This document shows, in pieces, positions 5,296-61,050 of a DNA stretch of 64,000 nt (positions are counted from its first letter, which is position 1; each line of letters starts with the position of its first letter). A program made the translations under genes and the position numbers. Under the pieces are notes generated by a model, which was not told where the DNA came from, searched no databases, and was given only the letters and a program-made list of their open reading frames with translations. This stretch comes from Kiritimatiellia bacterium (lineage in GTDB: Bacteria; Verrucomicrobiota; Kiritimatiellia; CAIVKH01), in contig DAOLDL010000003.1 of the NCBI GenBank assembly GCA_035327305.1, forward strand, positions 76 through 64,075, read 5' to 3'.

Positions 5296-5319
5296 TCGAT
5301 AGCAAATACAGGAAATCGT

Positions 5320-7681: not shown

Positions 7682-7697
7682 AGAAGCCGGACGAATA

Positions 7698-28414: not shown

Positions 28415-28539
28415 ATAAATTCCTTGAAATATGCGGACAAGTTACCACAACACATGTGATATGATCAAGCCATGTCGTCATAACCTTACGGAAGATAATA
28501 TATTGTGCCAGTGCCCCGCGCCGTTTACAATTCGCCGAC

Positions 28540-30080: not shown

Positions 30081-30083
30081 GCA

Positions 30084-31217: not shown

Positions 31218-31229
31218 TGCGATGGATTA

Positions 31230-36729: not shown

Positions 36730-37712
36730 GAAAGCGACTCCTTCCCAAGCATGCGGCGGACGGCGTGGCGGATGGACTCGTTTGATGAATATCTGGTTAC
36801 CCAGCCCCGGGCGGTCATTTTATCGACTTTGAAATTAACCTTGGGCTGGTCGCCCGGCCAGGCGCGTTTGGCCCCCTGAATTTTGATGACCGGATTGATT
36901 CCCATTTCCTCCACAACGATGCTTGCGATGTCGAGAACCTTGGTTATGGTGGTTGTGCCGAGATTGAAAATATCGGCTGGTTTTTCCTCGGTCATGGGGA
37001 TATTCAGAAACGACCAGGCCATTCCGTTGATGCATTCCTCGACCAAAAAGTAATTTTTTTGCTGGGTGCCATCGCCGAGAATCAACAATTCCTCGGGATT
37101 CGCCCGCAAGCGATTGATGAAATCGTAAATTACGCCATGGGTCATGCGGCCGCCCACGACATTTCCGAACCTGAACATCCATCCGCGAACGCCATAGAGC
37201 TGACTGAAAGATGAAATAAATGCTTCGCTGGCGATTTTGCCGGCGGCATAGGTGGATATCGGCAACAACGGCCCCGCGTCCTCGGTTACCGGATTATCCA
37301 CGCATAACTCACCGTACACCGCGCCGGTGGATGCAAACAGGATTGGTTGAATGCCATTTTCCCGCATGGCGTCCAGAACGTTAAACGTCACGATGGCACA
37401 GTCATTCAAATCGCGGCGCGGTTTGGCATGGCTACCGATAATATCCGTGTTGGCGGCAAGATGCCATACAAGGTCATGGCCTTTCATTGACTCGCGCACC
37501 AGCGAGTCGTTCATCAAGTCGGCTTCGATAAATTTAAAAGCGTGGTTTCCAAAATGAGGCTCGACAAATTCGCGGCGGCCATTGGACAGATTGTCCACCA
37601 CCGTCACGTGGTACCCATCCGCAAGCAGACGATCCACGATGTGACTGCCAATAAATCCCGCGCCGCCGGTGAGGTAAACCCTTTGTATGGAATCGCCAAG
37701 TAATCTGTTCAT
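36726..37712 (-). CDS. NAD-dependent epimerase/dehydratase (extended SDR).
   Basis: VYLTGGAGFIGSH Rossmann motif and a YAAGK (YxxxK) catalytic motif. Confidence 0.7.
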   Translation of the reverse strand: MNRLLGDSIQRVYLTGGAGFIGSHIVDRLLADGYHVTVVDNLSNGRREFVEPHFGNHAFKFIEADLMNDSLVRESMKGHDLVWHLAANTDIIGSHAKPRRDLNDCAIVTFNVLDAMRENGIQPILFASTGAVYGELCVDNPVTEDAGPLLPISTYAAGKIASEAFISSFSQLYGVRGWMFRFGNVVGGRMTHGVIYDFINRLRANPEELLILGDGTQQKNYFLVEECINGMAWSFLNIPMTEEKPADIFNLGTTTITKVLDIASIVVEEMGINPVIKIQGAKRAWPGDQPKVNFKVDKMTARGWVTRYSSNESIRHAVRRMLGKESLS

Positions 37713-37713
37713 G

Positions 37714-38700
37714 TTATGATCCGTAATCAGGCTTGATTCTTCCGGCGGCCACGTCTTTCACCATCGACGTGATGGAGGCGCGAACCGCTTCGCGTGAATT
37801 CATTTTGTTCTTCCAACCCAGAGCGCGAATTTTCCGGGTGTCCAGGCGATACAGGGGCACATCGGCTTTCCAGCCGCGAGAGCCACCGGTATGGGCATAC
37901 TCCACATTTTTCAGTCCCATGCACCCGGCTACCAAGTCGGCAATTTCATTAACGGTAAGAAAGTCCTTTGAAGCGACGTTGAAGTAACGATAGCCCGGTT
38001 CGGGATTTTTTTCCAGCATCAGGAATGCCCCGACCACATCGTCGACGTGTATATAAGGTTTGCTTTGCGTGCCGTCGCCGAAAATTTTGAGTCGTGCGGG
38101 ATTGGCGGCGAGTCGACGGATAAAGTCGTAGGCAACGCCATGGGTTTGCCGGGGACCCACGACATTGGCAAAACGGAACACCACACCCTGTATGTCGAAC
38201 ATGAAACTGTAGGCGCTTACCAGCGCCTCACAAGCCAGCTTGCATGCTCCATACGTGGAAACGGGAATCATCTTGTCATAATCCTCCGGGATCGGATAAG
38301 GCGGCACTTCGCCATACACTCCGCTTCCCGATGTGAAAAATATCCGTTTCACATTTTCAAGCCGCATCGCTTCGAGCACATTGCGGGTAAGCATGGTGCC
38401 GTTGCTGAAATCTATGTCCGGATCGACGGCGGCCCTGGCAATGTCGGAATTTGAGGCGAGATGGAAAACGGTGTGGTGGTTACGTATGGCTTGCCGCAGT
38501 GCCTCGCAATCGCGCACATCACCCTCCACAATCGTCAGGCGCGGGTCATTCTGAACTGCTTCAAGATGCCAGCCCTGACCGGTGGAAAAATTGTCGTAAA
38601 CGGTCACATGCCCGGAGGTTTCCCCCAAAAGACGAGTGGTCAGATGCGCGCCGATGAAGCCGGCGCCGCCGGTAACAAAATATCTGTGAGTTTCAGTCAT
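37714..38700 (-). CDS. NAD-dependent epimerase/dehydratase (extended SDR).
   Basis: YFVTGGAGFIGAH Rossmann motif and a YGACK (YxxxK) catalytic motif. Start chosen at the ATG at 38700. Confidence 0.7.
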   Translation of the reverse strand: MTETHRYFVTGGAGFIGAHLTTRLLGETSGHVTVYDNFSTGQGWHLEAVQNDPRLTIVEGDVRDCEALRQAIRNHHTVFHLASNSDIARAAVDPDIDFSNGTMLTRNVLEAMRLENVKRIFFTSGSGVYGEVPPYPIPEDYDKMIPVSTYGACKLACEALVSAYSFMFDIQGVVFRFANVVGPRQTHGVAYDFIRRLAANPARLKIFGDGTQSKPYIHVDDVVGAFLMLEKNPEPGYRYFNVASKDFLTVNEIADLVAGCMGLKNVEYAHTGGSRGWKADVPLYRLDTRKIRALGWKNKMNSREAVRASITSMVKDVAAGRIKPDYGS

Positions 38701-38801
38701 TGTATGTCCATGATTATTAAACAAGTACCGCATTTTTTCCAACTGCGGCGGAAAAGGCAACATGTAAACACGTTGTGGCTATTTTTGACGGTCCGGCATG
38801 A

Positions 38802-41800
38802 TTAAAAACGCGCTTTTAAACCAATTTCCCATGTTTTCTCCTCGTACGTCGGCATTTCCATGCGCGTAAAGCCGCCGAAACACTGAACTTCGCCTCCAAA
38901 ATCATACGCAAGCCGGATCGTGATATTCCAAACATCCTCCCACTCCGTTGCGGTTTCCCGGGCTATTCCCCATTCGGTGTTCAATTCGTAGGAAATCAAT
39001 CCGCAGTTTCCCGTGAAGGCGCCCAGCAATGCATGATATTCCAGTTTTTCTGGAGAATAGTATTCGGGAACCGTATCATCGTTACGCTCCTGACGCACTT
39101 TGTAACCAGCGCCAACGTACGGACTATCCATTAAACGATACACGATTTGACCCGCGAGCTTCACGGCGTCATTGTCATCCGTACGTAGCAGATAGTTTCC
39201 GCGGGCATGTGCATCAAATTGATTCAGCATGATTGAATTGACTGACCATGAAAAAGCGTCGTACCGGATATTTTCGCGGATCGCTTCGACTGTCGGTACA
39301 ATGTCGCGTTGGTAGCCCAGTTCCCAGCTTCCATTGAGCACCCGGTTTTCTGAATGTAAAAACAATGACCCGACAGCCTGGTTTTTCGGTTCGTTATCGC
39401 TCCACTGTATCCACTGCAATTCACTGCGTAACCGGCGTTCGTTTGTGAAAAACCAAAGCCCCTCCATGCCCAAACGAAAACCATCCACATCACCGAGCGA
39501 TGTGCGGCGATGGTTACTATGTTCCGCCCGCGCACCCAGTCGAATATCTTCCTGTATGTGCCAATGTCCGGCAACGCCAAACCGATTCGCCGATCGATCA
39601 TCGGTATCATGGATGTTATCGAAGTTGACGACCAGTTGCGGCCTCAACTCCTTTTCAGCCTTTTCCAACAGACGAAAAACCTGATCCTGATCAAGCGATC
39701 CGGCCTGCGCCGCTGTACGGAGCTTCGATAAAGCGGCGGGCAGATCCCCTCGTTCGAGCGAGTTTGACCCCCAATCATACATGAACAAAGAAGGATCAAC
39801 GCCAGAATCAGACACTTCCTGATATAATGCATGTGCACGGGCATGCTGACCTTGCTGATTCAACCGGCGCGCCATTTCCACCTTGGCCTGAATAACCGGA
39901 TTGTTGGATCTCAAATACTCATTGATGTCATCTGCGCCATCCAACATCACCAATTCCATGGTTCGAGGCGGCGGAATGGCGCGGAATGGAATTCGCATAC
40001 GGTCATATCCCGGAGTTACAAATCCATGTTCATCCAAAGCCAGGACATAATCAAAATACTTGCGCGTCACATTTCGCAATATATCCACCTCCTCCTTGCC
40101 AGGATCGTGCGACATATGTCCACAATCTCCATGAGGATAAACAAACATGCGTGGAATACCTTCCGGTATCGAACGGGCGGCATCGCCGAGCCATTGGTTT
40201 AACCGCGCTTCCATTTCCGCAACGGTTTCGACGGATTCATCGGATTTGATGATTCGATGGATAAGCGGATTACCCAAAAAGGCCGATGCCACGCCCCTGG
40301 TATTTGAAATGTGCTCCGGCCCGGTGGTGGCGACCAACCATCGACCGCTCTGTTGCAGATCGACAAATGATGTACGCGAAGTTTCACGAGGAAGCATGTG
40401 GCGAAAAACTGATACATCCACAGCAAGAACAACTTTTACCTGATGCTTTGCCATAAATGCATCCAATTCAGGCAACACATCGGGAGAGGGATGCACCAGC
40501 ACCATGATGACTTGTTGCCCTGGATTGGCCACAGCGTGCTCCAACTCAAAAGGAAATATAAATGTGTAACCTGCCGCCAGCAACTGACGCATGTGGTTTT
40601 TCAATTGCCCGACATGATTCTGCCCGTCCATTTGACACACCGACAAGGATTTGTATGCCAATACGGGAACTGCGGATTCCGGTGCGAGTTGCGCCAAGGG
40701 TTTCAAGCGCCGGATCGAGGCTGGAATGTTTCGACCATGTGCCTTATTCCGAATAACAGCGCCCCCTTCAGTATTGTTGATGATATCGTCGGCTCGCGCA
40801 ACCAATCGATTCATCCCGGCATGGGCGGGATTATGTTTCAGATATTCTGATGCGTATGCAAAAGCGGCCGGCCAATCAAACAGACCTTCGGCAATTTCCG
40901 CACTGACTCTGTATAAATCCGGAGTTGGCGAAGATTCAATTCCGGCCTCGGCCAACGATGCCGCGACTTCATAATCCCCTTTAGCTCTTGCCAACTCAAT
41001 CGCCCTCGAGAATAATTGATGGGCAGGGAACTTCCGCAAGCCCAGCTCTATCAAATAAATCGCTTCATCGTGACGGCATGCTCGCACCAATGCATCGGCG
41101 GCAGTCTGCAGGAAATACACGCCATCATGGACGTTGCGTACCGACTCCGTCCAAAGCGCAAATATTTCAGGCTCACGCCCCAGACTGACCAGCATGTCGG
41201 AAAATTTATCCGCGCCGAAAGTCCCGCGTGACCGCAGTCTTGCACCCCACCAATTTACCTGGGACACCGCTTCCGCATAACGTTCATCCGCCATCAACAT
41301 GTCAAATAACTCCAGCCGCAAATCCGGCTGACCGGAATCGCGATCGAGACTTTCCATGACAAACATAACCGCATCGGAAATTTTGCCCACTCGACGGGAC
41401 TGCATTGCCTTTATTCTATAATGGACAGCCGGGGGAACAGGCGCCAACAAGGCGTTCATGAAGAAATCGTCAACATTTCTCGGGGATTCAAAACGGGGCG
41501 CCAGCCTGGCCGCCTGAAGCCATGCGGAACTGGCAGGATCCCTTGCAATAATCCTCCGGTACAACGTATAAGCAGTCTCCGGCTCGCTGTTCATGGCAAA
41601 TTCGTCGGCAAATCCCAGCAATAACGTGGTTATGAGTGGGTCATAGTAGGGTTGATCACCGACATAGCCGCGCATGATTTCACCGAGTGCCTGATTATCG
41701 CGACATATCGCGGCAATTTCATAAAGTAGATCCACTTCAACATGGTCAAATGTCGGCAGGTCGCCCGGTGTAAGGGCAGGAAGTTCATGCGACCAGGCAT

Positions 41801-43367
41801 CACAGTTGCCTTTCAGCGCCTTTATCAGCGATAATTGCAATGAGCTTTTGCGGTCTAGATTATCGGCGACAATCCGTTCAAGAAGCATGACCGCCGCATT
41901 CATGGCGCCATTGCGCATTGCGGAATCGGCGAGATTACGCCAGGCGGATATCCCGCGCGTCGCATCCAGAAGCGAACGCGCATCGGAGAACGCGCGAATC
42001 TTCACCAATGCTTCCAAAACCTTGACCAAGTCCTCATCGGCAACCGGTCCGTCATGCCTGAATGCCCTCTCCCAGTATCGCAGAGCTTCAGCATCATCAC
42101 CGGACTCCCACATGAGCCACCCGAGCGAACGAGCTGACTCAAAACCATCGGGATCGTAATTAAGCGATTCATGCAGAAGCCATATCCGTTCATGAACCGG
42201 ACGGGATTCCGCGACCAGCCGACAGGCACCTGCCATCAATACATTCGATTGTTCACCACGGATATTTTTTAACGCATGGAGTCCCTGCCGAAGATCATCA
42301 AAGGAAAGTACGAAGCGGGCGCGTCCTCTGGCCATGGCTTCAATTATATTATCCGGCGCCACGTCACGCTCGATTTCCTCCACTTCACGAAACAATCCGG
42401 TCGCCAGATAATAAAAATGTCGAAGTTCGACTACGCGTTCATTCGTCGGAGAAAGTGCGACGGCGCGACGGACACAAGCGATGGCTTCGCTTGCATTTCC
42501 CGCCTGGAAATGTGCGTCAGCAATCCATGCCAGCCAACCCGGACGCACAGCATCCAGATGCTCCAGTCCCCGCGACCAGGCGTTCGCGGCATCCTGCCAA
42601 TTTTCACCGTACCAGTAATGCCATCCCAAATCCGACCACAGACTTGCCCGCCCTGGATTTAACCGTATTGCTTTTTCGTATTCAGTGACTGCTTCAGTGG
42701 AGAGTTCGCGTCGCGCCAGATCACGTGCCCGTTGCTGATGAATCAGGCTTCGCAAATCCACATACGCATTGAAATCATCCACGTCGTCATACCCCTCAAT
42801 CCCGCCGGTCAGGATATCTTGACGAAAAATCGCATACAATTGCTTCAACGTGTCATCAGCAACTGAAGGCAGTATTTTTGAAATCAGCATCGCGGCGGCG
42901 GAGTCCCTTTTTTTCTCCAACAAAATGCCCAACCACCGGATAATTGTGTCATTGGGCCGGCCCCGCAGACCTTCAACCGGAATTGCCTTCAGCAGGTTGT
43001 TTGCATCATCAAGGCGATTCATCCGCAAAAGCAGATCGACATTCCATGTGATGGAAAGTGACATCCAGTCGGCATCGAGTTTCCAAGCTTTCTCCAGCGC
43101 TTGAAGCGCTTCCTGGTCGCGATTGCCAAGCATCAAGGCGCGACCGAATTGACGCCATGCCTCGGCATGGGCGGGATCAAGAGATACGGCGCGTTCCGCG
43201 TGAACAATGGCATCGCTGATGTGTCCTCCGGTCAAAGCCTGACGCGACGCGGACACGGCCTCATGTACGGTAGCGCTTTCCGCGTATGAGCTTGGCAACC
43301 ACCCGCTCGCATGCGCACTCATAAATACGAAAAGTATGGCAGACGATAATTTAGCGATGATCTGCAT
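38802..43367 (-). CDS. Outer-membrane exopolysaccharide export protein, 1521 aa. It has a long N-terminal TPR scaffold, a central deacetylase/hydrolase-like insert and a C-terminal beta-barrel porin (PgaA/BcsC/PelB-like fusion).
   Basis: Signal peptide. About 900 aa of TPR-like helical repeats. A central region of roughly 200 aa (around aa 930-1130) with a putative metal-binding stretch FVYPHGDCGHMSHD. The C-terminal ~400 aa shows alternating beta-strand patterning and ends in an aromatic residue (…EIGLKARF), the canonical OMP C-terminal signature. Confidence 0.65.
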   Translation of the reverse strand: MQIIAKLSSAILFVFMSAHASGWLPSSYAESATVHEAVSASRQALTGGHISDAIVHAERAVSLDPAHAEAWRQFGRALMLGNRDQEALQALEKAWKLDADWMSLSITWNVDLLLRMNRLDDANNLLKAIPVEGLRGRPNDTIIRWLGILLEKKRDSAAAMLISKILPSVADDTLKQLYAIFRQDILTGGIEGYDDVDDFNAYVDLRSLIHQQRARDLARRELSTEAVTEYEKAIRLNPGRASLWSDLGWHYWYGENWQDAANAWSRGLEHLDAVRPGWLAWIADAHFQAGNASEAIACVRRAVALSPTNERVVELRHFYYLATGLFREVEEIERDVAPDNIIEAMARGRARFVLSFDDLRQGLHALKNIRGEQSNVLMAGACRLVAESRPVHERIWLLHESLNYDPDGFESARSLGWLMWESGDDAEALRYWERAFRHDGPVADEDLVKVLEALVKIRAFSDARSLLDATRGISAWRNLADSAMRNGAMNAAVMLLERIVADNLDRKSSLQLSLIKALKGNCDAWSHELPALTPGDLPTFDHVEVDLLYEIAAICRDNQALGEIMRGYVGDQPYYDPLITTLLLGFADEFAMNSEPETAYTLYRRIIARDPASSAWLQAARLAPRFESPRNVDDFFMNALLAPVPPAVHYRIKAMQSRRVGKISDAVMFVMESLDRDSGQPDLRLELFDMLMADERYAEAVSQVNWWGARLRSRGTFGADKFSDMLVSLGREPEIFALWTESVRNVHDGVYFLQTAADALVRACRHDEAIYLIELGLRKFPAHQLFSRAIELARAKGDYEVAASLAEAGIESSPTPDLYRVSAEIAEGLFDWPAAFAYASEYLKHNPAHAGMNRLVARADDIINNTEGGAVIRNKAHGRNIPASIRRLKPLAQLAPESAVPVLAYKSLSVCQMDGQNHVGQLKNHMRQLLAAGYTFIFPFELEHAVANPGQQVIMVLVHPSPDVLPELDAFMAKHQVKVVLAVDVSVFRHMLPRETSRTSFVDLQQSGRWLVATTGPEHISNTRGVASAFLGNPLIHRIIKSDESVETVAEMEARLNQWLGDAARSIPEGIPRMFVYPHGDCGHMSHDPGKEEVDILRNVTRKYFDYVLALDEHGFVTPGYDRMRIPFRAIPPPRTMELVMLDGADDINEYLRSNNPVIQAKVEMARRLNQQGQHARAHALYQEVSDSGVDPSLFMYDWGSNSLERGDLPAALSKLRTAAQAGSLDQDQVFRLLEKAEKELRPQLVVNFDNIHDTDDRSANRFGVAGHWHIQEDIRLGARAEHSNHRRTSLGDVDGFRLGMEGLWFFTNERRLRSELQWIQWSDNEPKNQAVGSLFLHSENRVLNGSWELGYQRDIVPTVEAIRENIRYDAFSWSVNSIMLNQFDAHARGNYLLRTDDNDAVKLAGQIVYRLMDSPYVGAGYKVRQERNDDTVPEYYSPEKLEYHALLGAFTGNCGLISYELNTEWGIARETATEWEDVWNITIRLAYDFGGEVQCFGGFTRMEMPTYEEKTWEIGLKARF

Positions 43368-45273
43368 AAATCACCCGCGTAACGCCCGGCGGGAAAAGCT
43401 CGATCTGCCTGGTGGTAACCGCCAATCTCCGTGCCGGAGTATATTTCCTGGCTTCCTCCAAGCTCATCTCGACCTGGCCCTCATCCCCCGCGATCAACAA
43501 CATCTCATTTGTTCCTATCCTGACTTGTTGCTTCAACAATTCCATCGCTTCATCCACGGAAACGATGAAGGTGACTTGATATCCCAGGTCGCGGAACGCG
43601 GCGGCCAGTTCCGGATCATAGCCCGTAACGGCGAATCGCGTAACCAGCATGCGCACGGACGGCATATTGAAGATGGCGGCGACTCGTTTAGCCAGCTCAT
43701 GTGCGTCAGCCCGGGTATATTTTCGATGTGTGGTGATGACCGGAACCGTATTGATTCCATCTCGCGCCGCACGCATAACCTCCACTTGCCGATGCTCGGA
43801 CAACGGATGCAGTCGATCGACATCCAACCATACCGGGAGAAGCGCGCTGGCCTGCTCTCTCATTGCATCCGATAGTTGATGGTACCTTCCATCCAGCAGA
43901 AACAGAGGTTTCAATGGGAGATAGTGTACCGGCTGAACTTGAATTTCGCCGCCCTCCGAGCCGATCCAAAATTGACCGTGCGTAAATTGACGGGAAATCG
44001 GAACGGATCGGGCAAACATTTCCTGATCGTGAGATACCCAAATGCGGTTGTTCTTGATTCGCAGGAAAATATGGTGAGTGTCATCCAGATTATTGGTTCG
44101 GGTTGTCGAGGCCAGTGTTTGCAATTTCCCAAGTCGCTTTTCCTGGAGTCGAACGGTCTGGTTTTGAATGGAGACCCGCAAGAAGGCGTGTGGTCCGGCG
44201 TAACGAACATACAAGGCGGCAACGGTTCCCGTTGAAATCCTCATGGTGACACCCGCCTCGAAATCACCCCAGAAATCGCTTCCTCGAAGAAGAGCCGAAC
44301 CGTTAGCGCCAAGCAGAATGGAATCACCATCCATGACGCCATTTCCAATGTACCAGCCGGTTTGTAATCCCGATGCGGGATACCATTCTTCCAGAGCACG
44401 AAGCAAATCCTCCGGCGACCATACGCCTTGTACCCTCATACGGGTAAGTGCGTACGGATCAGCGGTCTGACCGTTAAAAGGACTTCCTTCCTGCGTGAAT
44501 GCAATTCGATGAAACTGCTTGAGCGCTCCCTGATTGATGGTCGATGCGAGAGGATCCACATCCCGCCCCTCTCCCGGATCACCATAGGGATATAAATATG
44601 CTTGAATCGGACGGCTGGTGGCGCGAGCGAGAATATCTGCGGCGACCCGGTAGTCACGCGTAAGACGATCTTCAAACATGCCGTCGGTCTCGACATTATT
44701 TCTTACCCAGGCGCGTCGACTTAAAAAATTACCCTCCTTGCCGGCGGGATCAACGGCAATGCGTTTAATTGCTTCATGTCCCATACTGGCCAGCGACCAA
44801 TTCGGGTGCCGGGTGATCCGGCGCAAGTCGGTTTTGTCGATAAAATGATTTCCCCAGTATTCGGTTACTTCGGTAGGCACGAACAGTGTGCCGGTCATTC
44901 GATGTTTGATCAGACGCGGCGTTGCCCATACCATGTGATCCTTGCGCCCGCCTTCAAACATCAGCAAAACGGCTTTTCGCGGCAATGGCGCGTCACGATA
45001 ATAAAAGGACTCAATATCATCCGTATTGATCGTGCTATATCCGTGATCCTTAAGAGCGTCGAGAAACGCATCCAGCTTGGCCGGGGAAACATACCGTGGA
45101 TTATCGCTGTCCGCGATGCCTTCAAAAGACAACGCAAAGAATCCATCCCAACCCACATCGTCGCCCCATTCGGTGTCCGGGAGAGGATCCTTGCGAATAA
45201 AGAAATTGACAAGGGTGACAAAAAGAAATGCCACGATCAGCCATTGGGCGATGATGAATGCTTTTTTCATCAT
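43351..45273 (-). CDS. Membrane-anchored polysaccharide N-deacetylase/hydrolase (PgaB-like two-domain protein), 640 aa.
   Basis: N-terminal TM helix, then a CE4/NodB-like region (FALSFEGIADSD...VLLMFEGGRKDH...GTLFVPT) and a C-terminal domain about 300 aa long, as in PgaB. It sits between the synthase and exporter genes. Confidence 0.6.
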   Translation of the reverse strand: MMKKAFIIAQWLIVAFLFVTLVNFFIRKDPLPDTEWGDDVGWDGFFALSFEGIADSDNPRYVSPAKLDAFLDALKDHGYSTINTDDIESFYYRDAPLPRKAVLLMFEGGRKDHMVWATPRLIKHRMTGTLFVPTEVTEYWGNHFIDKTDLRRITRHPNWSLASMGHEAIKRIAVDPAGKEGNFLSRRAWVRNNVETDGMFEDRLTRDYRVAADILARATSRPIQAYLYPYGDPGEGRDVDPLASTINQGALKQFHRIAFTQEGSPFNGQTADPYALTRMRVQGVWSPEDLLRALEEWYPASGLQTGWYIGNGVMDGDSILLGANGSALLRGSDFWGDFEAGVTMRISTGTVAALYVRYAGPHAFLRVSIQNQTVRLQEKRLGKLQTLASTTRTNNLDDTHHIFLRIKNNRIWVSHDQEMFARSVPISRQFTHGQFWIGSEGGEIQVQPVHYLPLKPLFLLDGRYHQLSDAMREQASALLPVWLDVDRLHPLSEHRQVEVMRAARDGINTVPVITTHRKYTRADAHELAKRVAAIFNMPSVRMLVTRFAVTGYDPELAAAFRDLGYQVTFIVSVDEAMELLKQQVRIGTNEMLLIAGDEGQVEMSLEEARKYTPARRLAVTTRQIELFPPGVTRVIYADHR

Positions 45274-46940
45274 ACTTCGCCCTTTTCACTACTGCGTGTT
45301 TGGCGTGTTCCCCACGAGGAAACCCAGAACGTAAGCACCGCCCACGGCACTTGCCACACCAGCACCAAAAGGTAATAGAAACAGAATATTACGCCGTAAA
45401 ACCAGAGTCGGGATCGCTTCACCAACAGATAAGCCGCGCTCATGAGCGCGCTCATCAGGAAAATGCCGAAAAGGTACATGGCCGGTGTTCCCTGCTGAAA
45501 AACGGGAATGTAAACCAATGCCCGCATAACCACGGCGGGACTGATGACGGGAAGAATAAATCCCGCATAAAACGAAAGCCACATCAACGGTTGCCGTTTC
45601 CAAATGAAAAAGCAGGCTTTCAGCGACTCCCTAAACCATGAGCGCTTCCAACGCATCTGTTGGCGTAGGAATGTGCGATGCCGGGTCGGCACCATGGTGG
45701 TGGTGCGGGCGCGGGCATCGTATTTCAATTTCCAGCCGCGACGAATCAATTTATTCGTCAATGACCGGTCATCACCAAACGTCGCCGGCTGACCAAAGAA
45801 AGCTTGATTGATCCAACCGTCCAGAATGCCCAGCAGTGGTTCCCGACGATATGCCGTAAACGGTCCGGACAAGCAAGTAACCGTGTCAAAAATGCTTTCC
45901 GCCGCTTTAAGCACGCGGAATCCGATGAAATATCGGACCGCCTGCATTTTGGTCAGCATGTTAACCGAGGCATTTTCGACATCGCAATGCCCGGTAACCG
46001 CGGCAACCTCCGGGTCGGCAAAACCGTCGACGATTTTGGATAATGCATCGGGACACAAGAAGCTGTCGGAATCGGTGTAGACGATAATTTCACCTGAAGC
46101 CACGCGGGTTCCGGCCGCCAGGGCATGGCGTTTGCCCTGCTGTTCCTCGAGGTGAATGATTACCAGGTCAGGATATTTTTTCTTAGCCCGGTACATGGCG
46201 GCCAGGGTTTCGTCCGTACTGCCATCGTTGATTGCGATGACCTGCAATTTGTCCGCCGGATAATCCGACTCAAACGCGTGGCTTATTGTGCGTTCGATAT
46301 ACTGTTCTTCGTTGTGCGTTGGAATCAGCACCGTAAGCGGAGGCTTCTCCTTGACCGGCCGGGGTGCGCGATAACAGGCCGCGAAAATAAAGCGGCTTAC
46401 CAGATATGCCCCGACGGAAATGGTGTACAGGAAAACGGGCACATCAAACCAGAAGTAATAAAGATTCTGATAACGGGCAATGATGGTAAGGCTTGCCGCG
46501 ACGAAGAGTACAATTACCGATATCCAGAGCAGGTAATTCCATGTGGTTCGTGACAAGCGCAGACTTAACCGTTCGCCAAACTGCACTCCGACTTCACCGG
46601 ATTTTTCGTGACGGACTTTTACCGTGCCATCGACTTCATAATCGCGGGCGGCAAATTCTTCCGGCATGGCGCCTTCCGGAATGTGAAATCTTAATTTAAT
46701 TTTCTCATGATCACCGGGAAGGTCCAATCCGGAAAGGCGGAGTCCGCCATCCGAAATATCCGAGGCCTTGGCCCGTATGATCTGTTGATTCGGCCCTGAA
46801 CCGATGATTATTTCCACCGGGAAATCGACTTTGTAGCGGGGGGATTGACGCCGGTCGCTGGCATTAGGACGTGAAAGCGCCCTCAATCGCCGGTCGGGGA
46901 TTCTAACCGGATGTATTTGTTTGCCGGTTTCTTCGCTCAT
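45270..46940 (-). CDS. Processive GT2 polysaccharide synthase with an N-terminal PilZ c-di-GMP-binding domain (PgaC/BcsA/Alg44-like hybrid).
   Basis: Canonical PilZ motifs RRQSPR (RxxxR) and DISDGG (DxSxGG) in the first 100 aa. GT2 motifs DGSTDET and YTDSDS, Q(Q)xRW as QQMRWKRSW, and multiple TM helices N- and C-terminal to the GT domain. Confidence 0.75.
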   Translation of the reverse strand: MSEETGKQIHPVRIPDRRLRALSRPNASDRRQSPRYKVDFPVEIIIGSGPNQQIIRAKASDISDGGLRLSGLDLPGDHEKIKLRFHIPEGAMPEEFAARDYEVDGTVKVRHEKSGEVGVQFGERLSLRLSRTTWNYLLWISVIVLFVAASLTIIARYQNLYYFWFDVPVFLYTISVGAYLVSRFIFAACYRAPRPVKEKPPLTVLIPTHNEEQYIERTISHAFESDYPADKLQVIAINDGSTDETLAAMYRAKKKYPDLVIIHLEEQQGKRHALAAGTRVASGEIIVYTDSDSFLCPDALSKIVDGFADPEVAAVTGHCDVENASVNMLTKMQAVRYFIGFRVLKAAESIFDTVTCLSGPFTAYRREPLLGILDGWINQAFFGQPATFGDDRSLTNKLIRRGWKLKYDARARTTTMVPTRHRTFLRQQMRWKRSWFRESLKACFFIWKRQPLMWLSFYAGFILPVISPAVVMRALVYIPVFQQGTPAMYLFGIFLMSALMSAAYLLVKRSRLWFYGVIFCFYYLLVLVWQVPWAVLTFWVSSWGTRQTRSSEKGEV

Positions 46941-51767: not shown

Positions 51768-52397
51768 ATGAGTGAAAAACGATTTGATCGCGCAGTCAGA
51801 ATTGGGATTGGCGGACCCGTAGGTTCGGGAAAAACCATGCTGGTTCTGCGGCTTTGCCAACATTTGCGGGAAAAATACAGCCTCGGTGTGGTTACCAACG
51901 ATATCTACACCCTGGAGGATGCTCAATTCCTTACCCGCCAGCAAGCATTGGAGGCGGACCGGATTCGCGGCGTCGAGACCGGCGGTTGCCCGCACACCGC
52001 GATCCGTGATGACATCGCAATGAATCAACACGCGCTTGAAGACCTGGTGGCAACCCATCCTGACATTGAGGTTTTATTGGTTGAAAGCGGAGGCGACAAT
52101 TTATCCGCCACCTTTTCCCCGGAACTGGTCGACAGCTTCATCTACGTAATCGACGTTGCGGAAGGCGATAAGATTCCCCGCAAAGGCGGCCCGGCCATTT
52201 GCCGCAGTGACCTGCTGATCATCAACAAAATCGACCTGGCGCCGTTGGTCGGCGCCGACCTCGGAGTTATGGAACGCGACGCCAGAAAAATGCGCGACCA
52301 ACGGCCATTTCTATTTTGCGACCTTAAAACCGAAAAGGGGTTGGCCGATGTGATTCGATGGATAGAGTTCAACGCACTTTTTACCGGGGCCACCTGA
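51768..52397 (+). CDS. ureG: Urease accessory GTPase.
   Basis: P-loop [16 protein letters not shown] metal-binding motif, NKIDL. About 209 aa. Confidence 0.8.
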
Positions 52398-52413
52398 AGC
52401 GATCGGCTTCTTC

Positions 52414-53220
52414 ATGCAGGGAACTTTTGATATAACATGCCAACGCCGTGAACATGGCGAAACGTACATTGCCCGGCAATACGTTTCATCGCCCTGGCAC
52501 TTGAGCAAGCCTTACTGGGATGGCCAGATCCTGCTGGTACAGGCGGCCAACGCAACAGCGGGAATATTTTCCGGCGATCATTTAAGCCTCCGGGTCGATG
52601 TGCGGGAGCATGCCGCTGTTTTATTGACATCCCCCAGCGCCAGCCGAATCCACACCATGCATAAAGGTGAAGCCACGCTCCGGCAATCGATTTCGGTATC
52701 CGCAAACGCCTGGTTGGAATGGATGCCGGAATTATTTATTCCCCAAAACAAATCATCGTATCGGCAAATCACCCAGGTCGATGTCGAAAAGGGCGGCATG
52801 TTGTATATGGTCGAAACACTGGCCCCGGGTCGCGTGGCGCACGGCGAATCATTCAAGTTTGAGCGTGTGGAATGGACAACCAGAATTAACCATGCGGGCC
52901 GGATGGTGCTTTCCGAGCGATACCCTCTTTCGCCAGGCAATGGCTCATTGATTGACCTGACGTATAAAGGTAAATCCCGTTACTTCGCCAATGCCTTAAT
53001 CATATATCCCGGCGCGGACAACCTGCGTGAGTGGCAGGATCGTCTGGCCGAAATAGCGGGACCCCAGGACATCATGGGACTCACGGAAATCGACGAGGAT
53101 GTATACCTGATCCGTCTGATATCCGAACAAAGTCAGGATGTTAAAGATTGCCTGCGAAAATTGCGCGATATGCTGGCGGAGAAGATTCCTCAATTGCGGC
53201 AATCAGCCCGAAAACTGTAG
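52414..53220 (+). CDS. ureD: Urease accessory protein UreD/UreH.
   Basis: Length and composition fit the UreD family (…GIFSGDHLSLRVDV…TSPSASRIH…). Directly downstream of ureG. Confidence 0.6.
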   Translation: MQGTFDITCQRREHGETYIARQYVSSPWHLSKPYWDGQILLVQAANATAGIFSGDHLSLRVDVREHAAVLLTSPSASRIHTMHKGEATLRQSISVSANAWLEWMPELFIPQNKSSYRQITQVDVEKGGMLYMVETLAPGRVAHGESFKFERVEWTTRINHAGRMVLSERYPLSPGNGSLIDLTYKGKSRYFANALIIYPGADNLREWQDRLAEIAGPQDIMGLTEIDEDVYLIRLISEQSQDVKDCLRKLRDMLAEKIPQLRQSARKL

Positions 53221-53301
53221 ATATTATCACAACTCACTTTTCCCAAATCACTTCCGATTTTCGCTGGACTTCGTATACTGACGAGGTTATGTTCAAAAAA
53301 A

Positions 53302-53487
53302 ATGGACACAGATATTATGACCACCAATTCCAAATCCAGTCGTAAATCATACGTAAAACCGAAGGTCACCAAGGTTAAACTTGAGGACAAACGTGTTGTT
53401 GCCATGGCGATGTGCAAGGATTCGGTAGATAATTCCGCTTGTGTTCAAGACCGAATCACGCCGCTTTTCCAAATAAATCCTTCCTGA
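53302..53487 (+). CDS. Small Lys-rich peptide of 56-61 aa ending in Ser. Candidate modified-peptide precursor, speculative.
   Basis: ORF MDTDIMTTNSKSSRKSYVKPKVTKVKLEDKRVVAMAMCKDSVDNSACVQDRITPLFQINPS. Alternative start at 53317. Isolated in a 490-nt gap directly upstream of an HPr-kinase-like gene. Confidence 0.35.
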   Translation: MDTDIMTTNSKSSRKSYVKPKVTKVKLEDKRVVAMAMCKDSVDNSACVQDRITPLFQINPS

Positions 53488-53706
53488 TTTATCATCGCCA
53501 GTTTTCTCCAAATTGCCGGGGTCATATTCGAACTGGACCCTGCCGATCAAGCCTCACCGGTATCGCTTGCGCTTGCTTATCAGCCTTTCATAGTCCCGGA
53601 TTTTCCAGGCAAGAAACCTTTTGGTTCATACCGAATCATTGAACCAAAACAATCCATACTCGCGCCGATCTCCGGATCGCCATATTGGGAAAATGAAGTT
53701 TGGCGC

Positions 53707-54378
53707 ATGGGGAACTCCAATTCGCAGGAAATTGCCATAGAAATTAATGACGCCATCCGTGACCGGTGGGTTCCCGTCGCCAATATCGCGAATGACTTTT
53801 CCCGTGGAACAATTCAACCTTTTTTTGGCCGCCGCGCGGCTCCCGGGCCTCATGCACTGAACTATCCTTACGATCAGGCAATTCTTATCAACCGACTGTT
53901 ATACAAGGAAGTTGCCATCGTTCACGGCGCGGGCATCGTTGTTGATGGCAAAGGCTATGTTTTTTTCGGTCCTTCGGGAATTGGTAAAACCACCATAAGC
54001 CGGCTCTGGCTCGGCCATGGAGCAGTGTTGCTTAACGACGATCGGGTTGCAATTTACCGGCAAGGCGATGAATGGCGAATCGCCGGCACACCGTGGCACG
54101 GCGAGGAACCAAAAGTATCCCCGGCCAGCGCCCCGCTTGCCGGGGTGGTACGATTGCGACAAGCTCCGGAAAATAATATACGAAAGCTTACCGCCATCGA
54201 GGGACTATCCGAATTGCTGGCTTGCGCCCTGATACCTTTCTTTTCGAGGAGCGGAATTGACCGCGCCATGGACCTCCTTGGGGACATGTACAACGCCGTT
54301 CCCATGATGGAATTTTCATTCCGCCCGGAAAAAGAAGCGTTGACCTATTTTTCCGGCCACACAGCAGACTTGGCGTGA
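53707..54378 (+). CDS. HPr kinase/phosphorylase C-terminal-domain-like P-loop protein (HprK-related kinase).
   Basis: Walker A in HprK context: HGAGIVVDGKGYVFFGPSGIGKTT. 223 aa and no N-terminal HprK domain. Confidence 0.6.
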   Translation: MGNSNSQEIAIEINDAIRDRWVPVANIANDFSRGTIQPFFGRRAAPGPHALNYPYDQAILINRLLYKEVAIVHGAGIVVDGKGYVFFGPSGIGKTTISRLWLGHGAVLLNDDRVAIYRQGDEWRIAGTPWHGEEPKVSPASAPLAGVVRLRQAPENNIRKLTAIEGLSELLACALIPFFSRSGIDRAMDLLGDMYNAVPMMEFSFRPEKEALTYFSGHTADLA

Positions 54379-54821
54379 TTTATCCAGATCGGCGGACGAA
54401 ACAGCACCCCGATACGACCGATAGCTATATGCAACCACCGGTATAACCGGGAAGGTCCCGATGTAGCATCCGTAACGCGGCCAGCCTGATCGGAAAATTT
54501 TTCCACCCGCCCCAGAACGGAACAATCAGGCATGGGAATCCGATCAGGAAACCATGCCCCGTCGCCTTTCGTGATCCACCACCATTTGCCGTGACGCTCG
54601 ACACGCTTCAAGGCCCGATGGGCAATCAAATGACCATCGTATTGACATACAATGACGTCACCTATGCGAGGTTCAACGAGTTTGCGGGCGGCCACACGAA
54701 GACTGACGGCATCTTGCCAGCGCCGTCCCATGCTGATCCCGGAAGAAGGAAGTGATATGTGCCCGCAAGCCTCCAGCTTTGCTGATAGCGCTTCATCCAA
54801 TTGTACTTTTGTTTCCGACAT
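54345..54821 (-). CDS. S24/S26-family serine peptidase (signal-peptidase/LexA-like Ser-Lys dyad).
   Basis: Ser motif LPSSGISMGRRW (GxSM), Lys motif HRALKRV, and a downstream ITKGDGAWFPD...SVLGRV matching the S26 GDN...S.DSR...G.V region. Its 3' end overlaps the kinase 3' end by 34 nt, convergently. Confidence 0.55.
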   Translation of the reverse strand: MSETKVQLDEALSAKLEACGHISLPSSGISMGRRWQDAVSLRVAARKLVEPRIGDVIVCQYDGHLIAHRALKRVERHGKWWWITKGDGAWFPDRIPMPDCSVLGRVEKFSDQAGRVTDATSGPSRLYRWLHIAIGRIGVLFRPPIWINHAKSAVWPEK

Positions 54822-54835
54822 GCTAGCATTTCCCC

Positions 54836-55324
54836 ATGAAACATATATGGGCGCCCTGGCGAATCGACTATATCACATCACCAAAGATAAAGGATTGTTT
54901 TTTGTGCGCATACTTTGCCTCGGAAAACGACCGTGAAAATCTTGTGTTGGCTCGGGGACCGACCTGTGGCGTGGTCATGAACCGCTACCCCTACACCGGC
55001 GGCCATCTCATGATCTGTCCGTATCGCCATATTTCCTCGCTGGGGGAACTCACCACGGAAGAGATGACGGAAATGATGAAGTGGTCTGCTATATCTGTCG
55101 ATATTCTGAAAAAGCATATGAAGCCGGATGGATTCAACATCGGATTGAACCTTGGAGAAGCGGGAGGAGCCGGACTCAAGGATCATTTACATATGCATGT
55201 CGTACCGCGATGGATTGGTGACACCAACTTCACCAGTGTGGTCGGCGATCTGCGGGTAATTCCGCAAGCGCTGGAGGCACTGTTCGATCAGTTACAGCCG
55301 ACATTCGAGGCGCTACCATCATAA
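54836..55324 (+). CDS. HIT-family (histidine triad) nucleotide hydrolase/transferase.
   Basis: Histidine triad HLHMHVVPR and an N-terminal CFLC zinc-ligand-like motif. Confidence 0.75.
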   Translation: MKHIWAPWRIDYITSPKIKDCFLCAYFASENDRENLVLARGPTCGVVMNRYPYTGGHLMICPYRHISSLGELTTEEMTEMMKWSAISVDILKKHMKPDGFNIGLNLGEAGGAGLKDHLHMHVVPRWIGDTNFTSVVGDLRVIPQALEALFDQLQPTFEALPS

Positions 55325-55436
55325 TCTGCACCCCCTCCCGGTCTTTGCCTTCCTTGCGGTGGCGCCGCACCGGATTTCCTGACGGACTGAATCATATCCC
55401 GGGTTTGCGGCGCTTGCCAGTGAGGTTGTTATTCCG

Positions 55437-56321
55437 TCACATCGATTTCAGCGATCGATCCGATCGCGTAATATCCACCCCATCCACCGTCCACCGCGTC
55501 AACAAGGTTTTGACGCGACCTAGCCGGGTGGAAATATCCATGGATACAATGATCCGTTGTTCCGGGCAGACCCAGATTGATTCCGGGATATTCCGGACAA
55601 ACAATCCGGGAGATTTTGATTTCACCAGCAACTCCCTCGCCTCATGATCGCCCAGAGCCGATTTAACGTGGGCTGTGTCCACAACCTCCGCGGACATTTC
55701 ATGGACGGCGTCATCCATGATAAGCGCGTACAACCGAGGTTCATCGCGCGGCAGATCACCCAGCGACCTTAGAGAAAACATCATCGACACATAATCCTGC
55801 GTGCCTTCCGGAATCATGAATTCAACGTTCGTTTTGGCGCGCCTATCACTCCACGAAGCAACCTTGCGAACTGAATCCACCGTCAAAAAATCATCCTGGC
55901 GGAACGACCCTTCCCTGATCAGCTTGTGGACTTCATACATTGTTTCGCCGACTTCGTTTATTCGTTCGACACTGACTATTTGACTGTCAATTCGCTTGAA
56001 TAACGACACCCAACCCTGGCTTTTGGCTTGCATGACCCGGATCCAAACATTTGTTCCACCCTCGGAATAGCGCCGGCATGACATGGTCGCCTTACCGGCG
56101 GTAACCGCGCCCCACTTGATGTCATATTCCATTACCTCGCTTTCGAGCGGTAAAGGAGCGGAGGAAGCCATAAAACCGGTCGTTAAAACAACCATGAAAG
56201 TTAAAAATTGGATTGCGCGAATAAACACATCCTGACAGTGGTCAAAAGAGATGGTGGAAGCAAGCGTTATCGCGCCACGCGATATATGGTTGCTTGGGTA
56301 ATGTTCCAAATGTTTTGCCAT
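55437..56321 (-). CDS. Secreted hypothetical protein.
   Basis: Internal hydrophobic signal-like segment (FLTFMVVLTTGFMASSA). No recognisable catalytic motif. The true start may be internal. Confidence 0.4.
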   Translation of the reverse strand: MAKHLEHYPSNHISRGAITLASTISFDHCQDVFIRAIQFLTFMVVLTTGFMASSAPLPLESEVMEYDIKWGAVTAGKATMSCRRYSEGGTNVWIRVMQAKSQGWVSLFKRIDSQIVSVERINEVGETMYEVHKLIREGSFRQDDFLTVDSVRKVASWSDRRAKTNVEFMIPEGTQDYVSMMFSLRSLGDLPRDEPRLYALIMDDAVHEMSAEVVDTAHVKSALGDHEARELLVKSKSPGLFVRNIPESIWVCPEQRIIVSMDISTRLGRVKTLLTRWTVDGVDITRSDRSLKSM

Positions 56322-59643: not shown

Positions 59644-59710
59644 AGTTGCTGTTTACATCTGTCGTGCATCTCCCTAGTATCGGGTAACTTGTCATATGCG
59701 AGAGGATCCT

Positions 59711-60481
59711 ATGGCCGCCACGAAAAATAGTGGAAAACCACGCTACAAACGCATTTTGTTGAAATTAAGCGGTGAGGCATTTCAAAACAAACGCACGGGA
59801 GAAAGCCTTGATCCCGAAGTGCTTGTAAGTATTGCCAATCAGATTAAACGGGTGAAAAATCTCGGCGTGGAAGTGGCAATAGTGGTCGGAGGCGGAAACA
59901 TCTTTCGCGGGCTGACCGGTGAAAATTGCGGTGTTGACCGAACCACAGGTGACCACATGGGCATGTTGGCTACGGTAATCAACAGCCTGGCCTTGCAGTC
60001 CGCCCTCGAAAGCGCCGGCGTAATGACTCGTGTCCTTAGCGCCATCAATATCTCCGAAGTCGCCGAACCGTTCATCCGCCGCCGCGCCATCCGTCACCTC
60101 GAGAAAGGACGCGTCATCATCATCGGCGCTGGAACGGGTAATCCGTATTTTACAACCGATAGCGCCGCCGCCTTGCGCGCCAGTGAAATCAACGCGGATA
60201 TTCTGTTGAAAGCAACCAAGGTGGATGGCATTTACAATGCCGACCCCATGAAGTCCCCGGGTGCGGTCCGCTTCGATCACATCAGTTACCAACAGGCATT
60301 GCGGGATCAGTTAAAAGTCATGGACGCCGCCGCGTTCTCACTCTGCCAGGAAAATAATATTCCCATCCTCGTATTTAATTTCTTCAAGGAAAATGAAATC
60401 ATGCGCGCCGTACTTGGTCAAAAAGTCGGAACGCTGGTCGATGATAAAGCGTCGGCCCAATCGAAACGCAAAACAGGATAA
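59711..60481 (+). CDS. pyrH: Uridylate (UMP) kinase.
   Basis: RILLKLSGEA...VVGGGNIFRG signature. Start taken at the internal ATG (MAATKNSGKPRYKRILLKLSGE). Confidence 0.85.
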   Translation: MAATKNSGKPRYKRILLKLSGEAFQNKRTGESLDPEVLVSIANQIKRVKNLGVEVAIVVGGGNIFRGLTGENCGVDRTTGDHMGMLATVINSLALQSALESAGVMTRVLSAINISEVAEPFIRRRAIRHLEKGRVIIIGAGTGNPYFTTDSAAALRASEINADILLKATKVDGIYNADPMKSPGAVRFDHISYQQALRDQLKVMDAAAFSLCQENNIPILVFNFFKENEIMRAVLGQKVGTLVDDKASAQSKRKTG

Positions 60482-60486
60482 ATGAC

Positions 60487-61050
60487 ATGGATTCGACCGA
60501 CGACATACTTTTGGAAGCTGAAGACAAGATGAACAAATGCGTGGAGCATTTGACCCACGAGTTATCCGGACTTCGCACCGGCAAAGCCTCCCCCAGCCTG
60601 GTTGACAGCATTCCGGTTGAATATTATGGCGCCATGACCAAATTACGGGAAATAGCGGGCATCAGCACGCCGGAACCCCGACTGATCGTCATCAATGCCT
60701 ATGATCCATCAGCGTTGTCGGCCATCGACAAAGCGATTCTCGCCGCGAATATTGGCGTCACCCCGATCAACGACGGTCGCGTGATTCGCATCCCGATTCC
60801 GGAACTAAGCGAAGAGCGTCGCAAGGAACTGATCAAGGTCGGCAAGCGTATGAGCGAAGAAGCGCGTGTTGCGATCCGGAATGTTCGACGCGATTCGAAC
60901 GAAGCCATAAAGTCATTGCAGAAGAACAACAAAATCACCGAAGATGAGCGCGATGCCGGCACCGAAGAAATTCAGAAGCTGACCGATGCCTACATTGGTA
61001 AAGTCGACACCATGATCGCAACAAAAGAAAAAGATATCATGGTGGTGTGA
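60487..61050 (+). CDS. frr: Ribosome recycling factor.
   Basis: 187 aa. Conserved RRF sequence (…LSGLRTGKASPSLVDSI…RIPIPELSEERRKEL…) and the conserved pyrH-frr arrangement. Confidence 0.85.
   Translation: MDSTDDILLEAEDKMNKCVEHLTHELSGLRTGKASPSLVDSIPVEYYGAMTKLREIAGISTPEPRLIVINAYDPSALSAIDKAILAANIGVTPINDGRVIRIPIPELSEERRKELIKVGKRMSEEARVAIRNVRRDSNEAIKSLQKNNKITEDERDAGTEEIQKLTDAYIGKVDTMIATKEKDIMVV

Follow-up and report, generated by a model that had tools for sequence, protein, structure and literature searches.

What do a short open reading frame (ORF) ending in a serine codon and the HPr kinase-like P-loop protein encoded beside it make together? The question is raised by a 64-kb stretch of DNA (the window), part of a 150-kb metagenomic contig whose proteins are labelled Kiritimatiellia bacterium at NCBI. 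An earlier note, made from the sequence of the window, had proposed a peptide-modification module of four genes at this locus, coding for the peptide, the P-loop protein, a peptidase of the S24/S26 type, and a HIT protein. Our analysis narrows this proposal: three of the genes probably, though by no means certainly, form a module of the type known from peptides that are made on ribosomes and modified after translation (RiPPs), consisting of a precursor, a kinase of the HprK/PEPCK fold, and a cytoplasmic leader peptidase of the SipW/Sec11 type, and giving rise to a phosphorylated peptide (Table 1).

The small ORF is present as the earlier note had described it, with 56 to 61 codons depending on the start and with the ending INPS followed by TGA. 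It was compared with ten loci beyond the window, which comprise the contigs whose kinase-like proteins are closest to that of the window and three loci from metagenome-assembled genomes of Verrucomicrobia. In all of these eleven window-type loci (the window, L137, L138, L139, L141, L003, L004, L005, L142, L143, and L144) the peptide gene is at most 12 nt away from the kinase-like gene or overlaps it, and the orthologues directly upstream of this gene in the ten further loci have 53 to 64 aa. The N-terminus is variable and rich in Lys, Arg, and Ser. Conservation extends from Tyr17 to the C-terminus, with the consensus Y-x-K-P-x-[VIL]-T-[KR]-[VI]-[KN]-L-[EQ]-D-...-V-A-M-A-V-C-K-D-S-L-D-N-x-A-C-A-Q-D-G-V-T-P-L-F-Q-I-N-P-S across the eleven loci. 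In the last 46 codons, 28 pairwise comparisons among eight of the eleven loci give 497 synonymous and 296 nonsynonymous codon differences, and third codon positions hold 701 of the 1105 nucleotide differences; the genes of L137 and L138 differ by 23 synonymous changes and a single nonsynonymous one. Because the ORF is conserved beside the kinase-like gene in 11 loci and its changes are mostly synonymous, it is a genuine gene under purifying selection and not a spurious ORF. With 52-98% identity between loci, the peptide is even better conserved than the neighbouring kinase-like enzyme, whose homologues are 37-76% identical to that of the window. The ORF is uncalled on the ENA contig, and a 1.1-kb Logan contig has a gene call of 62 aa at this place (L001, L002).

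The conserved part of the peptide begins with the motif Y-V-K-P-K-V, which matches [Y/W]xxPx[L/V], the element in the leaders of lasso peptides and of linear polyphosphorylated peptides (LPP) that is bound by the RiPP recognition element (RRE) (PMC13381572). When the peptide is aligned with its distant homologues (alignment A5), the Tyr and Pro of YxxP and both Cys are invariant, and the profile built from A5 finds 1,875 database clusters at E ≤ 0.01. Among the 120 best of these matches, YxxP occurs in all 120, exactly two Cys in 118, and a C-terminal Ser again in all 120; the same terminal residue is found in 11/11 window-type peptides and 43/43 clean cassette peptides from the wider set of loci. 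Apart from the Tyr, the Pro, and the two Cys, the terminal Ser is the sole residue at a fixed position that every precursor shares. The significance that the earlier note attached to it is borne out by this constancy and by the lasso kinases reported to act on such a Ser (PMC6993621; PMC10368454). The 120 clusters listed of the 1,875 have no Pfam domain and are unnamed or called "hypothetical protein". Likewise, the RiPP-precursor hidden Markov models (HMMs) of Pfam and NCBIfam, against which the note had suggested searching it, give no match to the window peptide. The junction of leader and core probably lies between L27 and M37. Cleavage may occur after L-E-D, by analogy with the F-E-T of LPP and Acidobacterial peptides. 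Alternatively, since classical signal peptidases obey a rule of small residues at positions -3 and -1, the cut may equally follow A-M-A.

The gap of 490 nt in which the peptide gene had seemed to stand alone is coding, and the kinase-like gene starts right after the peptide stop. Its frame is open throughout 53488-53706, beginning on the codon after the TGA of the peptide, and the translation of this segment (about 73 aa) aligns with the additional 70 or so N-terminal residues of homologues of about 290 aa. Five positions of this N-terminal domain (A10, G11, F34, W67, and W72) are invariant in the kinase-like family. What had been taken for a stand-alone HprK C-terminal domain is a protein of about 296 aa with two domains, and the public annotation (start at ATG 53707, 223 aa; an NCBI protein without the N-terminal domain) is probably truncated. 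There is no ATG, GTG, or TTG between 53488 and 53707, and the kinase-like genes of L139 and L003 likewise have none of these codons ahead of the conserved N-terminal strand (start regions: window 53485-53510; L139 5872-5900; L003 7986-8045). Translation probably starts at a non-canonical codon, ATC at 53491 or 53494, by translational coupling to the peptide gene. In seven of the 11 loci the two genes are in frame and parted only by the TGA, and low-level read-through of this stop may produce a fusion of peptide and enzyme. As a conserved feature such a fusion was rejected, because the frames agree in only 7/11 loci; the simpler reading is translational coupling in which a non-canonical codon (ATC, CTG) serves as the start.

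The catalytic core of the protein consists of His146, the P-loop GPSGIGKTT already located by the earlier note, and the pair Asp184-Asp185, all of which align with their counterparts in L. casei HprK/P. Over 40 sequences, His146, Gly161, Gly166, Lys167, Thr169, and Asp184 are invariant, and Asp185 is conserved in at least 90%. The lasso kinase PsmK loses its activity when the corresponding two Asp are exchanged (D158A/D159A; PMC6993621). An HMM of the kinase-like proteins from distant loci recognises the window protein with E = 9e-72.

The third gene overlaps the 3' end of the kinase-like gene convergently by 34 nt, as had been seen before, but the Ser-Lys dyad ascribed to its product is not the active site. 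As judged from its sequence, the protein is a small Ser-His-Asp enzyme, in which Ser30-Met31, His68-Arg69, Asp87, and Asp93 are invariant across an alignment of 22 homologues in the pattern of Sec11 and SipW. The family profile matches human SEC11C and SEC11A with E values of about 1e-10 and the catalytic residues aligned, and an HMM of the cassette peptidases from distant loci detects the window enzyme at E = 5.6e-38. The only notable match in NCBIfam is TIGR02228 (sigpep_I_arch), whose score of 29 bits is below the cut-off of 51.85. With the window peptidase as the sole query, a word-based search for homologues returned only the query itself, and the family was recovered via genomic context and our own HMM. 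With the Sec11, SipW, and archaeal signal peptidases (MEROPS S26B; TIGR02228) the enzyme shares the Ser-His-Asp residues and the boxes G-x-S-M, G-D-[IV]-[IV], H-R, and T-K-G-D...D. Unlike them, it has just 158 aa, lacks a visible N-terminal anchor, and is genetically dedicated to one peptide. Because a reading of its first 30 residues, MSETKVQLDEALSAKLEACGHISLPSSGIS, shows no hydrophobic segment that could serve as a membrane anchor, the peptidase is probably soluble and cytoplasmic. It lies convergently downstream of the kinase-like gene in 10/11 window-type loci, so that the genetic tie of the peptide to an HprK-like protein and a protease of the signal peptidase type, as first proposed, holds.

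Table 1. Positions of the three module genes, their functional elements, and the adjacent HIT gene in the 64-kb window.
Feature	Position	Strand	Remark
Precursor peptide gene	53302..53487	+	61 aa from ATG 53302, or 56 aa from ATG 53317
Leader recognition-type motif Y-V-K-P-K-V (YxxPx[V/I/L])	53350..53367	+	Residues 17-22 of the 61-aa form; alignment A5
Probable leader/core junction L27-E28-D29-K30-R31-V32-V33-A34-M35-A36-M37	53380..53412	+	Inferred from A5 and the experimentally mapped LppA cleavage site
Conserved core CKDSVDNSACVQDRITPLFQINPS	53413..53484	+	Two invariant Cys (Cys38, Cys47) and invariant C-terminal Ser61
Ser61 codon	53482-53484	+	Predicted phospho-acceptor
Two-domain HprK/PEPCK-fold P-loop protein ("ScmC-like")	53488..54378	+	About 296 aa; predicted peptide kinase
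His146	53923-53925	+	Catalytic core (53923..54042) of the kinase-like protein
P-loop GPSGIGKTT	53968-53994	+	Catalytic core
Asp184-Asp185	54037-54042	+	Catalytic core
Compact SipW/Sec11-type signal-peptidase-like protease	54345..54821	-	158 aa; predicted leader peptidase
Asp93	54543-54545	-	Catalytic residue of the peptidase
His68	54618-54620	-	Catalytic residue of the peptidase
Ser30	54732-54734	-	Catalytic residue of the peptidase
HIT ORF	54836-55324	+

In the pathway that we propose, the precursor of 56-61 aa would be translated together with the kinase, whose coupled start would lie within a few codons of the peptide stop. The site formed by His146, the P-loop, and Asp184-Asp185 would then transfer one or more phosphates from a nucleoside triphosphate (NTP) to the side chain of Ser61, as the related lasso kinases PadeK, ThcoK, SyanK, and PsmK do. 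The peptidase, using Ser30, His68, and Asp93, would remove the leader with its YxxPxV motif by cutting after L-E-D or A-M-A. The product would be a linear peptide of 25-32 residues that is phosphorylated at its C-terminus and possibly carries a disulfide between Cys38 and Cys47. The phosphorylation and its site, the cleavage site, and the independence of an RRE are what we infer here.

Comparison with more distant relatives shows that a larger cassette exists, of which the window module is a reduced version. From scans of genomes and metagenomes, at least 134 loci emerged that encode more distant members of the kinase-like family. They were analysed together with three close-relative contigs (L137-L139, L141), 137 loci in total, in which ORFs were called and clustered. 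Many of these loci are cut by contig ends, so that co-occurrence counts are lower bounds: the peptidase family is found in at least 92 of the 137 listed loci, PqqD in at least 108, and a radical SAM/SPASM enzyme in at least 95. Further conserved neighbours are a peptide of 50-70 aa and often an NTP_transf_5 protein, the protein families being named after their Pfam matches. The usual order is peptide, peptidase, kinase-like protein, PqqD, and radical SAM enzyme. Most hosts belong to Acidobacteriota, Chloroflexota, or Methylomirabilota, and Verrucomicrobiota are also among them. The peptides of the distant loci are homologous to that of the window, which fits the profile of the wider cassette with its YxxP, two Cys, and terminal Ser (alignment A5). 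The kinase-like protein thus keeps the company of the peptide and the peptidase, as the earlier note had supposed, but usually also that of PqqD and radical SAM/SPASM proteins, which had gone unnoticed.

Among the window-type loci, PqqD and radical SAM genes lie directly upstream in four (L003, L004, L142, and L143). Six have neither within at least 5 kb upstream (the window, L137, L138, L139, L141, and L144), and the upstream sequence of L005 comprises 0.9 kb only. When all frames of the 64-kb window and of L137-L141 were searched with the cassette HMMs for PqqD, radical SAM, and NTP_transf_5, there was no match with E < 1, and the same HMMs at E ≤ 1e-3 together with precomputed Pfam calls find none in L144. 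For the ORFs and frames scanned, the reported absence of lasso B, lasso C, and PqqD genes from the window stands, and it extends to radical SAM genes. As the relatives normally carry PqqD and radical SAM/SPASM genes, the version in the window is regarded as reduced. The full and the reduced version coexist in one community with partly shared synteny: L142 (ena:ERZ27240676:k141_77374), a second contig of the metagenome sample from which the window comes, has PqqD, radical SAM, peptide, and kinase-like genes with pyrH-frr directly after them at 5186-9041, and the pyrH-frr pair of the window is at 59696-61050. There is no SipW-type peptidase near the module of L142.

Other genes accompany the wider cassette in subsets of loci. 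A secreted protein of about 600-740 aa that is rich in Ser, Thr, and Gly (cluster c11) flanks it in 24 Acidobacterial loci, for example at L078 9035-10885, L100 518-2740, and L108 2794-5010. An ECF-sigma-like (c19) and a methyltransferase-like family (c21) also recur, both labelled from one representative sequence each. A plasmid search with the kinase-like protein gave distant matches only, one of them on plasmid pNP243 of the cultured Bacillota strain Butyrivibrio fibrisolvens (L145; NZ_CP146964.1, 1-9891). This plasmid encodes a 296-aa "hypothetical protein" similar to the kinase-like protein of the window (E = 1e-17), a protein of the PqqD family, a peptidase of the S24/S26 family (hhalign probability 95.6%), and a Cys-rich peptide of 57 aa that contains YVKPEL and ends in Trp, not Ser. 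A nucleotidyltransferase, a GT2 protein, two ABC ATPases, and PssD/PssE glycosyltransferases are encoded around them. The pNP243 cluster is another variant of the theme of kinase-like protein, RRE, and serine peptidase.

The earlier note could match such a route to no described system, but one has since been published. In May 2026, Popov et al. (Nat Commun; PMC13381572) described the LPP of Bacillota, whose clusters (LppA/K/B/S/D/N) pair an HprK-like kinase with a SipW-like peptidase. The LPP precursors carry the motif YxxPxVLxHQxIxFETxxS, the kinase LppK polyphosphorylates Ser3 of the core, and LppB is a discrete RRE. The peptidase LppS, with the catalytic residues S29/H68/D93, cuts after F-3/E-2/T-1 only when LppB presents the leader, and the clusters also encode an MsbA-like pump and an NTP transferase (PMC13381572). 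According to the same authors, peptidases of the signal peptidase type had no precedent in RiPP biosynthesis before LPP, and both LPP and paeninodins occur only in Bacillota.

The window shares with LPP the YxxPx[V/L] leader, the HprK-like kinase as primary modifier, the lack of a macrolactam cyclase, and a SipW/archaeal-type peptidase of about 150 aa (S30/H68/D93 in the window); the likeness to LppK and LppS was judged from the published descriptions. The wider cassette, though not the window, additionally resembles LPP in having an NTP_transf_5 protein and an RRE of the PqqD type encoded as a separate protein. Its leaders carry YxxPx[V/I/F], and its Acidobacterial precursors keep the F-E-T junction but have no conserved Ser3. 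In terms of predicted functions, the wider cassette shares with the LPP of Bacillota the logic of kinase, SpI-type peptidase, RRE, and NTP transferase. The differences are also considerable. The window belongs to Kiritimatiellia and not to Bacillota, and the F-E-T of the LPP motif is replaced by L-E-D. While Ser3 of the LPP core is phosphorylated, no Ser is conserved three residues past either candidate junction in the window peptide, and the C-terminal Ser is the only one that all members conserve. LPP have long cores (precursors of 35-200 aa) with highly variable C-termini, in contrast to the short and nearly invariant core with two Cys and a final Ser. The discrete PqqD-like RRE and the PF14907-type NTP transferase of LPP were not found in the window, nor was the MsbA-like exporter among the genes within about 10 kb or the larger ORFs scanned, and the radical SAM/SPASM enzyme of the wider family is not mentioned in the LPP paper.

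Paeninodin-type systems offer the closest precedent for the terminal Ser. PadeK and PsmK are HprK-family kinases that phosphorylate the side chain of the C-terminal Ser of their precursors (PMC6993621), ThcoK and SyanK polyphosphorylate it (PMC10368454), and in pseudomycoidin the uncharacterised NTP transferase PsmN adds a hexose to the phosphate (PMC6993621). As in the window, an HprK-family kinase gene lies beside a gene for a Ser-ending precursor with a YxxPxL leader motif. Unlike in the window, these systems have an Asn-synthetase-like cyclase, the cysteine protease B2, and a lariat product, whereas removal of the leader in the window is assigned to a serine enzyme of the signal peptidase type. 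The SynChlorMet (Scm) cassette (TIGR04248-04251, PF27840) resembles the wider family in combining the HprK-like ScmC with the PqqD protein ScmD and the SPASM-type proteins ScmE/F. It contains two radical SAM enzymes and is not known to include a signal-peptidase-like gene or an identified precursor. It differs from the window, in which neither PqqD nor radical SAM genes were detected, and from the family, whose radical SAM enzymes reach 83-97 bits with the ScmE model against a cut-off of 400. Literature searches for RiPPs combining HprK, radical SAM, and signal peptidase proteins or for ScmC/SynChlorMet returned only the papers on LPP and lasso kinases. The wider family is described in no paper that we found, which is an absence from the searchable literature and not proof of absence.

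The pairing of kinase and SipW-like peptidase, introduced to RiPPs in 2026 as confined to Bacillota, also occurs in Kiritimatiellia and Verrucomicrobia. Acidobacteriota and Chloroflexota have it in abundance, in combination with radical SAM/SPASM chemistry. The simple signature of the large, unannotated precursor family (YxxP leader, two Cys, obligatory C-terminal Ser) provides an easy handle for genome mining. A natural version without RRE and radical SAM genes makes leader recognition without an RRE and the role of a phosphorylated terminal Ser testable.

It is possible, and we suggest it only tentatively, that the module in the window is a complete pathway and the smallest phosphopeptide RiPP system, in which the enzymes read YxxPxV without an RRE and the peptide, (poly)phosphorylated at its C-terminal Ser, has a conserved role in the cell or in signalling. 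Such a role, as opposed to that of an antibiotic in an arms race, would fit because the whole core is extremely conserved. If this were true, the family would be a large relative of LPP outside Bacillota that comprises at least about 1,900 precursor clusters and adds radical SAM chemistry. A number of observations weigh against this reading or against parts of the proposed module. The HprK-like kinases of LPP and of the Bsf lasso system target Ser3 of the core and not the C-terminus (PMC13381572, PMC10368454), the functions of kinase and leader peptidase are predictions for the whole family, the kinase-like gene has no canonical start codon, and no exporter gene was found nearby. Moreover, no RRE protein was found in the 64-kb window, and LppS depends on its RRE protein for cleavage (PMC13381572). 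A near-identical peptide is encoded beside PqqD and radical SAM genes in L003, L004, L142, and L143, one of which shares the metagenome sample of the window, so that the Cys may be targets of a radical SAM enzyme and the module in the window may be incomplete. In that case PqqD and a radical SAM/SPASM enzyme would be encoded elsewhere in the genome, the Cys would be cross-linked or otherwise modified, and phosphorylation and leader removal would be just two of several steps. Even the loci that lack PqqD and radical SAM genes keep YxxPxV and both Cys without change, which implies that something still reads these features. However, RiPP clusters are normally contiguous, the cassette HMMs come up empty in the window, L137-L141, and L144, and six loci share the loss while their peptide is still under strong purifying selection. 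On balance, we regard a module that depends on distant genes as a serious but rather unlikely alternative.

The activity of the HprK/PEPCK-fold protein also deserves scrutiny, because the label "kinase" rests on fold and motifs, all curated thresholds being missed. In scans of Pfam and NCBIfam with the truncated and the full-length form, all matches were below threshold: PF07475 with 25.8-26.4 bits (cut-off 33.3), the HPr kinase/phosphorylase family TIGR00679 with 24-25 bits (240), ScmC (TIGR04249) with 12.1 bits (125), and the HprK-related kinases A (TIGR04352) and B (TIGR04355), where the earlier note would have sought it, with 12.8 and 30 bits, respectively (both 200). The protein is outside these families. 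A precomputed label for it and its relatives, a weak match to PF27840, points to the uncharacterised ScmC, and a local copy of Pfam did not return this family; the best structural matches of the whole chain are PEPCKs and not HprK/P. HprK/P itself also catalyses a phosphorolysis reaction. Instead of phosphorylating Ser, the protein might activate the C-terminal carboxylate, perform phosphorolysis, or serve as a leader-binding scaffold in place of an RRE. We consider this improbable, given that the His/P-loop/Asp-Asp set common to HprK/P and proven peptide kinases is (nearly) invariant and that a terminal Ser with its hydroxyl group is fixed in every precursor. The wider cassette, moreover, often includes an NTP_transf_5 protein, and in pseudomycoidin the phosphate is decorated by an enzyme of this kind, PsmN (PMC6993621). 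The YxxPxV leader, the Ser-ending peptide, and the HprK-like neighbour would also suit a lasso peptide with a macrolactam ring to Asp and a phosphorylated tail, made by a paeninodin-type pathway, as the earlier note had contemplated. No Asn-synthetase-like cyclase or transglutaminase-like B protease is found among the window ORFs scanned (Pfam scans of 28 ORFs plus precomputed Pfam calls for the genes from about 43 kb to the end of the window). Neither occurs among the conserved neighbour families of the 137 loci that were examined, 12 of the top 25 and all the larger ones among them, whose identity was taken from Pfam or from inspection of one representative. The serine peptidase fills the role of the protease, and a lasso peptide is hardly credible here.

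The three-gene module leaves the HIT protein without a part. It follows the peptidase gene, as stated earlier, and might be a fourth partner that acts, for example, on a nucleotidylated or phosphorylated peptide intermediate. The HIT gene is adjacent and divergent to the peptidase gene in the window and L139 and near the module in L137, L138, and L144, but in the latter three loci a PMT_2 gene of 642-657 aa intervenes. It is absent from L141, L142, L143, L003-L005, and all Acidobacterial and Chloroflexi loci, so that the quartet of genes first envisaged is limited to the closest relatives. The iPGM and asd genes farther downstream are likewise syntenic only within this clade, and the best family match of the HIT protein is to housekeeping HIT proteins of the ATP adenylyltransferase type. 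A function of the HIT protein in the pathway is therefore very unlikely.

Around the module, no exporter was found, that is, no ABC exporter within about 10 kb according to precomputed Pfam calls or among the larger ORFs scanned, and the number of promoter and terminator sites in 53100-55500 does not exceed that in shuffled sequence. Upstream are ureG- and ureD-like genes (51768-53220; ureG-like of the cobW/UreG family beside ureD), preceded by leuC/leuD on the opposite strand; urease structural genes, ureE, and ureF are not among the window ORFs scanned. The place of ureG/ureD is taken in most Kiritimatiellia/Verrucomicrobia-type loci by a divergent gene for a giant protein of 1,500 to more than 3,500 aa (L137 2-4588; L138 1-4573; L139 1-2428; L141 1-2814; L143 1-4970; L144 1-4909), which in L139 has CLIPPER domains. 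ORFs of about 165 aa upstream of the peptide gene in L138, L139, and L141 were considered as a missing partner and rejected, as they code for secreted proteins without a counterpart in the window; in L144 this place is taken by an ORF of 164 aa for a different, unrelated secreted protein. Downstream of the HIT gene are genes for a DUF3108 protein, an α/β-hydrolase, and a GHL10 protein, followed by pyrH and frr.

Farther upstream, 6-25 kb from the module, a large polysaccharide-biosynthesis locus (28500-46940) encodes GT4 and GT2 glycosyltransferases, several NAD-dependent sugar epimerases/dehydratases, a UDP-glucose dehydrogenase, a TPR protein of 1521 aa, and a GT2-PilZ cellulose-synthase-like protein. 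The PMT_2 gene adjoining the peptidase gene in L137, L138, and L144 likewise codes for a glycosyltransferase, and the LPP and paeninodin clusters of Bacilli sit inside capsular polysaccharide loci (Popov et al., PMC13381572). Finally, an ORF of 2240 aa at 18038-24760 on the minus strand codes for an α-amylase catalytic domain, CBM53, and bacterial TSP3 repeats, and the several long antisense ORFs over it are probably artefacts.

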